From Brevundimonas sp. (GTDB lineage: Bacteria > Pseudomonadota > Alphaproteobacteria > Caulobacterales > Caulobacteraceae): a stretch of DNA of 64,000 nucleotides. Positions 1,275 to 3,216 of the stretch are shown here, piece by piece. The first letter of the stretch is position 1. Each line of letters starts with the position of its first letter. The DNA lies in assembly GCF_004296955.1 (NCBI RefSeq), contig NZ_SCVB01000055.1; one strand, given 5' to 3'. The notes under the pieces are model-generated. The model worked only from the letters and a program-made list of their open reading frames with translations. It ran no database searches and was not told the DNA's origin. Both the position numbers and the translations under genes were made by a program.

Positions 1275-2036
1275 GTGCTGACCGTGAAGGACGCCCCGTC
1301 CCCCAATTTCGACGCCCGCCGCGGCCCGCCCGACATGCTGGTGCTGCACTATACCGGCATGCGCACCGCCGATGAGGCGGTGGCCCGGCTGCGCGATCCC
1401 GAAGCCAGGGTCTCGGCCCACTATGTCGTCGACGAGGACGGCTCGATCCTGCGGCTGGTGGCCGAGGAGCGCCGCGCCTGGCACGCGGGCAAGGGCGGCT
1501 GGCAGGGCGAGACGGACTGCAACGCCGCCTCGATCGGCATCGAGATCGTCAATCCGGGCCATGAGTTCGGTTATCGCGACTTCCCCGAGGTCCAGATCGA
1601 CGCCGTGATCAGCCTGGTCAGCGACATCCGCACCCGCTGGACCATCCCCGACGCCCGCATCATCGGCCATTCCGACTTGGCACCCGAGCGCAAACAGGAC
1701 CCCGGCGAGCGGTTTCCGTGGAAGCGGCTGGCCTCGGTCGGACACGGCCTGTGGTTCGAGCCCGCGCCCGAGCGGATCGCGGCCTTGGGCGCGCCGCTGG
1801 GCGTCGGCGACGAGGGTCTGGGCGTGATCGTCCTGCGCGCCGGCCTGCACCGGCTGGGCTACGCCCTGACCCCGGGCGGTGAATATGACGCGGCGACCCG
1901 GCTGACCGTGGAGGCCTTCCAGCGCCACTGGCGGCCGGGGCAGGTGGACGGGATCGCCGACGGCGAGACGCGGGCCACCCTGATGGGCGTGCTCCAGCTG
2001 GCGACGGCGGAGAGCGTGACGGGCGTGTTGAACTAG
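1275..2036 (+). CDS. N-acetylmuramoyl-L-alanine amidase (Amidase_2, AmpD/AmiD-like) with C-terminal peptidoglycan-binding domain
   Basis: LVLHYT, VSAHY, RAWHAG, SIGIE, IIGHSD…RKQDPG, AFQRH motifs; GTG start at 1275 (track start 1023 is a GC-rich extension). Confidence 0.92.
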   Translation: MLTVKDAPSPNFDARRGPPDMLVLHYTGMRTADEAVARLRDPEARVSAHYVVDEDGSILRLVAEERRAWHAGKGGWQGETDCNAASIGIEIVNPGHEFGYRDFPEVQIDAVISLVSDIRTRWTIPDARIIGHSDLAPERKQDPGERFPWKRLASVGHGLWFEPAPERIAALGAPLGVGDEGLGVIVLRAGLHRLGYALTPGGEYDAATRLTVEAFQRHWRPGQVDGIADGETRATLMGVLQLATAESVTGVLN

Positions 2037-2123
2037 AGGAAAACGTTCTCCCTCCCCCGAAGTGGGGAGGGACGGCGAGCCGTCAGGCGAGCCCGGGTGG
2101 GGAATTCCGCCGCTTGCGCTGTA

Positions 2124-2152
2124 TTGATAAAAACAGCCAAAGATTGTATAGT
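2124..2152 (+). promoter_or_regulatory. Sigma70-type promoter of the DUF559 gene
   Basis: TTGATA(2124-2129)-N17-TATAGT(2147-2152) in an AT-rich patch. Confidence 0.7.
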
Positions 2153-2172
2153 ATATGCAATCGGAGGAAGCT

Positions 2173-2553
2173 GTGGATTCTGCAGTCGAAAGGGCGCGCG
2201 CCATGCGAAAGGCGATGACGCCGCCCGAGTTGAGGCTCTGGAAATCACTGCGGCGGCTGCGCGCCGAGGGCCGACATTTCCGACGGCAGACGCCTTTTCG
2301 GGGCTATTTTCTGGACTTTGTTTGCCATCGGAGCCGGCTGGTGATCGAGGTCGATGGACAGATGCATGAGCATCGCGCGGAGCATGACCGGACCCGTGAC
2401 GCCGTGCTTCTTCGACAAGGCTACCGCACCCTGCGCTTCACCAACGAGGCGGTGCGGGATCACATCGACTGGGTGATGGACCGGATCAGGACCGAGCTTG
2501 CCGCCGGCATACCCCACCCGGGCTCGGCTTCGCCTCGCCGTCCCTCCCCATGA
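2173..2553 (+). CDS. DUF559 endonuclease-domain protein (Vsr/PD-(D/E)XK-like)
   Basis: RARAMRKAMTPPELRLW, HFRRQ, LDFVC, LVIEVDGQMH, D..RD..L…GY..LRF; GTG 2173 follows GGAGG (ATG 2155 lies upstream of the likely TSS). Confidence 0.88.
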   Translation: MDSAVERARAMRKAMTPPELRLWKSLRRLRAEGRHFRRQTPFRGYFLDFVCHRSRLVIEVDGQMHEHRAEHDRTRDAVLLRQGYRTLRFTNEAVRDHIDWVMDRIRTELAAGIPHPGSASPRRPSP

Positions 2554-2603
2554 AGGGGAGGGAGAACGTTGACGCCGTCTCCCGAAAAGCCCACCTAGCC
2601 CCC

Positions 2604-2977
2604 GTCAGACGGCCGGGCGGTCGCGGCGGGGGCTTGCTCCGTCGAGGAAAGTCCGGGCTCCACGGTGAAGAGGCGGCGGGCAACACCCGCCCGGGGCGAC
2701 CCGAGGGATAGCGCCACAGAAAGCAAACCTCCGGCCTTGCGAGGCCGGTAAGGGTGAAAGGGTGGGGTAAGAGCCCACCGCGTGCCTGGCAACAGGGACG
2801 GCATGGCAAGCCCCGCCTGGAGCAAGACCGAATAGGGATGTCGCGCGGCTTCGGCCGCAGGGTTCACCGCCCGAGGCGTCCGGGTAGGTCGCGAGAACCA
2901 TCCGGCGACGGGTGGTCCAGAGGAATGATCGTCACCGCTTTCGGGCGGTACAGAACCCGGCTTACAGGCCGTCTGAC
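2604..2977 (+). ncRNA. rnpB: RNase P RNA (type A)
   Basis: GAGGAAAGTCCGGGCTCC, AGCGCCACAGAAA, GGTAAGGGTGAAAGGGTGGGGTAAGAGCCCACC, ACAGAACCCGGCTTA; P1 ends GTCAGACGGCC/GGCCGTCTGAC. Confidence 0.98.
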
Positions 2978-3039
2978 ATTATTTTTGGGGCGCTAACGTT
3001 CGCGACGCGGTCGCTCACTGCTTGAGCGCTGCCTGGGCG

Positions 3040-3216
3040 CTAGAAGCGCTTGCGGGCCTTGTCGGCGGCGTCGATCAGCCGGAGGCCGGAGATCTCGGCC
3101 GCGTCCGCCGTCAGATCCATGGCGGCTTCCGGCGGGTCCTTGACGACCACCGCCCCGTCGACGGCCCGGGGGGACATCGGCTTGGTCGGGTCAGAGGGAA
3201 CAGGCTTGTCTGGCAT
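3040..3216 (-). CDS. 58-aa small protein absent from the ORF track
   Basis: MPDKPVPSDPTKPMSPRAVDGAVVVKDPPEAAMDLTADAAEISGLRLIDAADKARKRF*; host-like codons; GGAAC-N16-GGTT promoter just upstream. Confidence 0.7.
   Translation of the reverse strand: MPDKPVPSDPTKPMSPRAVDGAVVVKDPPEAAMDLTADAAEISGLRLIDAADKARKRF

Follow-up and report, generated by a model that had tools for sequence, protein, structure and literature searches.

A DUF559 gene between inverted repeats of the BoxC/PIT/TM type in Brevundimonas: a candidate nuclease-repeat partnership

The amidase-rnpB interval and its DUF559 gene

The window analyzed here is a 64,000-nt stretch of DNA from a Brevundimonas genome (69.5% G+C, 114 contigs, 93% complete). 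Positions 2042-2570 are occupied by a 529-bp unit in which two ~60-nt inverted arms enclose a promoter, a ribosome-binding site (RBS) and one DUF559 (Vsr-like) ORF. To its left lies the gene for an N-acetylmuramoyl-L-alanine amidase (1275..2036, + strand; Amidase_2 and PG_binding domains in Pfam) and to its right the RNase P RNA gene, rnpB (2605..2980, + strand; Rfam RF00010, 295 bits). The sequence TTGACG at 2569..2574 (+ strand) is the probable -35 element of rnpB, judging from alleles lacking the unit, which read TAG/TTGACG, and from an inferred spacing to the rnpB +1; the TT with which it begins also closes the right arm when the unit is present. Further out, a 110-aa hydrophobic ORF precedes the amidase gene (934-1266, + strand) and a 58-aa ORF follows rnpB (3040-3216, - strand), both without a Pfam match.

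A repeat search of the window identified inverted-repeat blocks of 16/16, 19/20 and 24/28 matching nucleotides between the arms. The 24/28 block carries the inverted repeat on to 2112/2502, in a weak inward extension in which 2103..2112 pairs with 2502-2511. A blastn search against all 3.1 Mb of the genome aligned the two arms with 86.9% identity in 61 columns (E 3e-5). In fold predictions a 9-bp hairpin, TCCCTCCCC/GGGGAGGGA, forms in each arm (its loop is 6 nt long in one and 5 nt in the other) and precedes a weak small hairpin; folding of a 541-nt stretch is far better than that of its shuffles (z -8.1). The left arm (2042..2102, + strand), delimited by the repeat search, blastn, the 9-bp hairpin and a genome-wide mirror test, comprises a Y-run TCCCTCCCC (2049-2057), a loop (2058-2063), an R-run GGGGAGGGA (2064-2072), the weak second hairpin (2073-2094) and a mirror-symmetric third run, GGGTGGGG (2095-2102). 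The right arm (2512..2570, - strand), delimited by the repeat search, blastn and folding, has the same parts: a run CCCCACCC (2512-2519), the second hairpin (2520-2540), a Y-run (2541-2549), a loop (2550-2554) that contains the DUF559 stop codon, an R-run (2555-2563) and the outer end GAACGTT (2564-2570). The loops of the first hairpin differ between the arms (CGAAGT versus the complement of ATGAA), and so does the small hairpin, in which one base pair is swapped (GCC-GTCA-GGC versus GGC-GAA-GCC). The swap recurs between arms and between species, for example in orthologue L067. Arms, shared blocks and the compensatory stem change are all as the initial annotation had described them.

Transcription of the ORF may start from a sigma-70-like site, TTGATA-17 nt-TATAGT (2124..2152, + strand), which scores 10/12 matches where 0.1 such site is expected in shuffled sequence, and whose -35 is kept in orthologues as TTGAC. 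Over the -10 region lies a palindrome, GATTG-N11-CAATC (2142..2162), that reads GATTGCA-N7-TGCAATC in orthologues and could be an operator of this promoter. An RBS, GGAGG (2163..2167, + strand), precedes the ORF (2173..2553, + strand; Pfam DUF559, E 3.5e-32), which has a GTG start, a TGA stop and 126 codons for amino acids. The initial annotation was right in placing a promoter, an RBS and a DUF559 ORF between the arms, but the ATG at 2155 gives way as start codon to the GTG at 2173, since only this second in-frame start is conserved in orthologues. Nor is the ORF confined to the interior: it reads into the right arm, so that its tail PHPGSASPRRPSP (the last ~13 residues) is arm-encoded, and the TGA at 2551-2553 falls in the loop of the right-arm hairpin.

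Pfam returned DUF559 and MTES_1575 as the only matches of the ORF product, with none to the Vsr family PF03852. Among PDB entries it matched 3HRL (E 5e-16), and an AlphaFold model (pLDDT 78) matched in Foldseek the same DUF559 protein (3HRL, E 2e-6), the homing endonuclease I-Bth0305I (3r3p, E 2e-4, TM 0.61/0.76) and Vsr (1VSR). Of these, I-Bth0305I is the closest solved relative known to be active. The model points to a Vsr-like PD-(D/E)XK nuclease fold, and nuclease activity is predicted from it. Putative catalytic residues D48, E59, D61 and D72 are invariant, and H65 and H71 nearly so. The E. coli YcjD model matches the protein as well (E 8e-19). A PADLOC search for defence systems gave only a weak match, to the nuclease part of DpdF, and no membership. 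The gene is maintained under purifying selection: among eight DUF559 orthologues dN/dS is 0.11 at dS 0.78, the adjacent amidase gene giving 0.126. We know of no role assigned to DUF559, a very large family. In the literature it figures as a fold relative of Vsr (PMC3424549).

The arms as variants of the BoxC/PIT/TM motif

The TM motif of E. coli, CCCTCNCCC-N3-6-GGGNGAGGG-N3-GGGNGAGGG, combines a hairpin with a further G-rich block, the third, which is able to form a triplex by lying along the purine strand (Holder et al. 2015, PMC4666352). Knowledge of BoxC/PIT/TM repeats goes back to the 1990s. In vitro they adopt triplexes, and in genomes they are markers of unstable loci; they had no known function, origin or route of spreading, and the same paper reports neither an associated gene nor an association with mobile elements (PMC4666352). 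In the arms of the window the order is CCCTCCCC, loop, GGGGAGGG, small second hairpin and GGGTGGGG, the last being a mirror image of the purine run with T in place of A. Each of the six subtypes seen obeys this mirror rule in register (GGGAGAAGG being matched by GGATGAGGG, for example, and GGGGGAAGG by GGATGGGGG), and third runs that follow asymmetric Y/R hairpins in this genome are in mirror order in 35 cases versus 4 in direct order. Searching with the motif pattern found 37 arms in this genome and up to 179 in congeners, against 0-2 for a backwards-pattern control. The arms had been annotated as REP elements. This identification does not stand; on the strength of the three-block mirror structure we read them instead as long-loop variants of the BoxC/PIT/TM intrastrand-triplex motif (PMC4666352). 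Short forms of the second link occur in relatives (L026, L029, G035). REP elements served by a RAYT were rejected as a candidate, the Pfam profile of the HUH Y1/RAYT transposase (PF01797) having no match in this genome, nor in 37/40 relatives.

A DUF559 gene also meets such a repeat in E. coli K-12. There the 3' end of ycjD runs into a degenerate arm, whose loop contains the stop codon, and published TMECO no. 9 lies ~170 bp downstream. At this locus (L126, NC_000913.3 1351204-1351760) the protein ends ...RRSPSP*, and the loop that takes up its TGA belongs to a degenerate CCCTCTCCC hairpin, after which a partial second copy of the ycjD 3' end is followed by TMECO no. 9.

Altogether, the Brevundimonas genome holds ~55-60 TM arms of five subtypes, mostly arranged as gene-less inverted doublets. 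The window subtype (CCCTCCC/GGGTGGG) accounts for seven or eight such doublets of 135-190 bp and for two solo hairpins. The second and only other DUF559 gene, on contig C62, is 39% identical to that of the window and likewise lies between two arms. Their subtype, CCTTCCCCC/GGATGGGGG, is distinct from that of the window arms and also occurs as three gene-less doublets. Three of the five subtypes have no cognate DUF559 gene in this 93%-complete assembly, and the arm copies are diverged, with no sign of recent amplification in this genome; both observations count against a partnership between nuclease and repeat.

Four doublets of the window subtype (C2, C36, C102 and C79) retain GGGACTGGCGT beside CCCCACCC, 11 nt that are identical to the 3' coding end of the clade-A gene L064, and also ~13 nt resembling the left interior end of the gene-bearing unit. 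These shared ends fit an origin of the doublets by internal deletion, and homing of a gene into the centre of a doublet would leave the same ends. About 14 nt of the doublet centre are absent from the full gene-bearing element. The doublets of the C62 subtype (C110, C26, C65) contain no remnant of the C62 gene, so that the evidence for deletion derivatives is limited to the window subfamily. At the site orthologous to the C16 doublet, other species carry different small inverted-repeat elements, and a clean empty allele was not found there.

The two solo long hairpins (C61:5830-5862 and C13:41407-41439) read GTTCTCCCTCCCC, loop, GGGAGGGAGAAC. They resemble what recombination between the two Y-runs of a doublet would produce and could be deletion footprints. 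A separate non-coding repeat of ~500 bp is present in at least 10 copies and breaks the assembly. It lies at C2:19297-19790, C79:~1560-2050, C111:9887-10285 and C76:89247-89623 (just past the window end), and at the ends of C13, C16, C17, C26, C36, C39 and C54; in C2, C79, C36 and C13 its end adjoins a TM doublet or solo hairpin. It matches no Rfam family and has no long ORF.

DUF559 genes and TM arms across Alphaproteobacteria

The proposal that DUF559 loci generally carry flanking arms was checked at two taxonomic levels. Of the DUF559 loci in this genome and 40 Caulobacterales relatives (31 in all), 28 lie within 260 bp of a TM arm and 21 are flanked by arms on either side; most often the layout is that of the window locus, with the gene inside a doublet whose third runs face inward. 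Among 26 loci from 81 genomes spread over the class, the corresponding figures are 24 and 12. Both DUF559 genes of this genome conform. As a control, the rnpB loci of relatives carry 4 arms in 98 kb. The association between gene and repeat is well supported. No description of a DUF559-TM pairing was found in the literature on DUF559, ycjD, intrastrand triplexes and REPIN/RAYT.

Numbers vary together too. Across 41 genomes the count of arms correlates with the count of DUF559 genes (Spearman 0.76, p 1e-8, a statistic that ignores kinship). The nine genomes without DUF559 have 0-12 arms (median 6), versus a median of 47 in the 32 that bear the gene, and all five genomes with zero arms are without an intact DUF559 gene. 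DUF559 copy number, 2-6 per genome, follows the repeats and not the methylases; a role as Vsr partner of a methylase was considered and is not supported, as the presence of a C5-methylase does not follow that of DUF559.

The kind of arm is inherited along with the kind of protein. Defining a clade-A gene as one whose product is at least 53% identical to the window protein, a cut-off chosen after seeing the values, we found within the genus a median of 20.5 type-A arms in genomes with such a gene versus 3 in those without (p 2e-4, again ignoring kinship), and a type-A share of all arms of 0.28 versus 0.11. Three genomes (G005, G002, G015) retain 11-26 type-A arms without a clade-A gene, exceptions that count against a partnership. 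On a tree of 45 DUF559 proteins, arm subtype requires 9 changes versus 24 in shuffles (0/200 as low; like the statistics above, without phylogenetic correction), and CCCTCCCC arms match one protein clade (support 100/99), whose genes occur in six or more different genomic contexts.

Where one genome has several DUF559 genes, these paralogues share at most ~73% nucleotide identity. Going by these divergences, the paralogues are old and the gene-bearing unit itself appears to move only rarely. At two loci of another genome (L107 and L120, G053:C1:1038222 and 155452), 1.38-kb stretches each comprising a DUF559 gene and arms are 98.8% identical; in our comparisons they are the only apparent sign of recent duplication of a gene-bearing unit. 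A different arrangement is found at L090 (G019:C3:410300-415600), where a full RecQ helicase (DEAD, Helicase_C, RecQ_Zn_bind, RQC and HRDC domains) continues in frame into a C-terminal DUF559 domain; a TM doublet lies just past the stop codon and no arm is visible at the 5' junction. Other long open frames around DUF559 in relatives proved mostly to be GC-rich artefacts, this RecQ fusion being the only real one.

The orthologous element lies between the amidase gene and rnpB in this genome and in eight more species-level genomes, with 82-89% nucleotide identity across the region and a single orientation in all nine copies. Seven other congeners have an empty site, with a gap of 35-59 bp. The remaining congeners carry a gene-less TM doublet (G003), a ParE-like toxin pair (five genomes), a DUF6678 ORF (two) or other ORFs. 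The gap between the amidase stop codon and the rnpB -35 is in fact an insertion hotspot of congeners (L044, L046, L047, L049, L055; L042, L043; L051; L052; L045); in the five species with the ParE-like toxin (PF05016, E 5e-6) an upstream ORF of 63-69 aa accompanies it.

The search for empty amidase-rnpB alleles, suggested by the initial annotation, thus turned up clean ones. In G023 and G005, two close relatives, the empty allele reads TAG/TTGACG. Removal of everything bounded by the inverted repeats from the filled allele would give this sequence to within 2 nt, and no solo hairpin was left behind at the empty sites. Comparison of filled and empty alleles shows an element with palindromic ends (AACGTT), the nearest empty alleles being 5-7% diverged. 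A possible terminal CG or TT is indistinguishable from the palindromic repeat end, and a target duplication is not discernible. G023, a complete genome, has one type-A arm left and G005 has 26. In a tree of 2.35 kb of flanks these two empties nest inside the filled clade (98/96), and the AU test rejects a tree that keeps the filled alleles in one group (p 1.8e-8). The simplest reading would be a single ancient gain and, after it, clean loss or replacement on several occasions; exchange of alleles by recombination is the alternative. The element is old, not a recent insertion, and behaves as vertically inherited.

The left arm is almost invariant across orthologues over a divergence of dS 0.78 while the adjacent spacer varies freely, a pattern that argues for constraint on the arms. 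At L066 the loop of the right arm is the exact complement of the left-arm loop, a replacement that suggests exchange between arms. Extra arms occur at two further loci, a partial one past the right arm at L063 and one or more on both sides at L071.

A proposed nuclease-repeat partnership and the readings that compete with it

The unit at 2042-2570 is co-inherited as a DUF559 gene with its own promoter between two inverted TM repeats. The analysis demonstrates its architecture, the association and co-occurrence of gene and repeat, the inheritance of protein clade together with arm type, selection of the purifying kind and presence/absence polymorphism; a nuclease activity, its target and any mobilization are inferred. 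We propose a partnership of the REPIN/RAYT kind that employs a PD-(D/E)XK enzyme, the unit being the gene-bearing member of the family, and put the chances of this being correct at about even. A single-copy, vertically inherited nuclease gene would sit within its own repeat, and the dispersed gene-less doublets (~135-190 bp) would depend on it. The nuclease would recognize its own arms, probably as a hairpin or triplex on single-stranded or extruded DNA, and nick or cut at the folded arms; host repair or replication would then copy, homogenize or precisely remove doublets and, rarely, the gene-bearing unit. Because PD-(D/E)XK nucleases form, to our knowledge, no covalent intermediate, strand joining must come from the host, and because paralogues within genomes are old, the arrangement would be one of a resident gene with dispersed repeats, as for RAYTs, and not an IS-like element.

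The gene might instead be a passenger. A TM-bounded, MITE-like unit would be moved or reshaped by replication slippage at palindromes or by an unlinked host recombinase, and DUF559 would be cargo with a job of its own, such as Vsr-type mismatch repair or that of a methylation-sensitive or addiction nuclease, as for Caulobacter VsrA. VsrA, a DUF559 protein, is functionally linked to the ScmA cytosine methyltransferase, is SOS-induced and has been proposed to be a mismatch-repair nuclease (PMC12907096), and that link and induction lend this reading some weight, as do the presence of a C5-methyltransferase in this genome, the orphan arm subfamilies without a gene, and the incapacity of a PD-(D/E)XK nuclease alone for strand transfer. 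However, a methylase is present in 8/9 DUF559-less genomes and missing from two DUF559-bearing ones, and a Vsr repair role alone would not account for the arms. Cargo status would not explain why arm number and subtype track the gene and its clade, and it leaves unexplained the arms at nearly every DUF559 gene of the class; no other candidate enzyme was found, RAYT being absent. We regard a passenger gene as unlikely.

An origin by homing appears more improbable still. A free-standing DUF559 endonuclease would copy itself by break repair into the centres of existing TM doublets, whose own spread would have had a different cause. In fold the protein is nearest to I-Bth0305I, a dimeric EDxHD homing endonuclease that cuts a pseudopalindromic site (PMC3239194); the gene usually lies exactly between two arms; and the interior ends of the gene-bearing unit recur in gene-less doublets, ~13 nt of them at the left and ~11 nt at the right. 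Homing is plausible where the gene sits inside a doublet. But at L008-L010, L004 and L005 the gene lies between two complete doublets and not within one, copies within genomes are old and few, and the doublet centre contains ~14 nt that the full element lacks. The apparent dependence of arm numbers on the gene also goes unexplained.

We consider it very doubtful that the arms are simply control elements, that is, a terminator, insulator or translation block of a potentially toxic nuclease gene, their likeness to dispersed repeats being incidental or the repeats inserting preferentially beside such genes. The stop codon in the hairpin loop and the position of the unit between a gene end and the rnpB promoter, where control of read-through could matter, would suit such a role; on the other side, there is no U-tract, PIT elements had neither promoter nor terminator activity in earlier work (cited in PMC4666352), and genome-wide co-occurrence and the match of subtype to clade are left without explanation. 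Programmed inversion of the cassette between its arms is highly unlikely: DUF559 is enriched among predicted inversion targets (odds ratio 14.3, PMC9881135), but 9/9 orthologous copies share one orientation, there is no adjacent invertase gene, and inverting a self-contained cassette alters nothing outside it.

Returning to the partnership between nuclease and repeat, a wider version can be put forward only tentatively, with the balance tilted against it: DUF559 nucleases may be the long-missing partners of BoxC/PIT/TM repeats across bacteria, each clade cutting its own folded subtype and so driving copying, homogenization and precise removal. If true, REPIN/RAYT would be joined by a second partnership of nuclease and repeat, one that evolved independently and relies on the PD-(D/E)XK fold and a non-B DNA structure. 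The pairing would account for the TM repeats and for the DUF559 family at once, and would supply a second case in which a repeat and an enzyme form a long-lived, vertically inherited pair. It points to a small, 126-aa nuclease that may read DNA structure rather than plain sequence. The locus makes a good test case, with orthologues in nine species, clean empty alleles and gene-less doublets of the cognate subtype.

Judged as a possible transposon with MITE derivatives, the unit has inverted ends and encodes no known transposase fold. Its protein has the fold of Vsr (1VSR), and VsrA carries a DUF559 domain (PMC12907096); it differs in lacking an adjacent methyltransferase, the sole C5-methyltransferase of the genome being on another contig, and a PF03852 match. 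With I-Bth0305I (EDxHD) it shares the nuclease fold, and a selfish-element context is plausible (PMC3239194); however, the gene is intergenic (amidase-rnpB), with no intron or intein, it lies among repeats and not in a conserved host gene, and its product is a single domain without extra DNA-binding domains.

The arms share with BoxC/PIT/TM repeats a hairpin of a C-rich Y-run and a complementary R-run and a G-rich third run that mirrors the R-run, G to G and A to T or A; like those repeats, they occur in many copies between genes, frequently with two arm types paired in inverted orientation, and vary in their loci between close relatives. Two differences are the link from R-run to third run, ~22 nt with a small hairpin in the window arms versus ~3 nt in TMECO, and the pairing with DUF559, absent from the published description.

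The initial annotation had seen in the unit a REPtron analogue with another nuclease fold. The layout, the gene-less repeats and the non-HUH enzyme agree with that idea; the REP identity of the arms does not, these being triplex motifs and not REP hairpins. The enzyme, moreover, is a Vsr-like PD-(D/E)XK protein and not an HUH Y1 transposase, so that covalent-intermediate chemistry would not be possible. A family-wide fixed and syntenic element had been named as evidence against the analogy. The element is syntenic in nine genomes, under purifying selection, and behaves as if vertically inherited, which goes half-way towards that outcome. It does not refute the analogy, because RAYT genes behave alike. 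REPIN/RAYT systems show the same picture in several respects: a gene between inverted copies of its repeat; dispersed gene-less doublets alongside it; one gene copy per family, with conserved synteny, vertical descent and purifying selection; more than one gene family in a genome, each with a repeat subtype of its own; and few repeats where the gene is absent.
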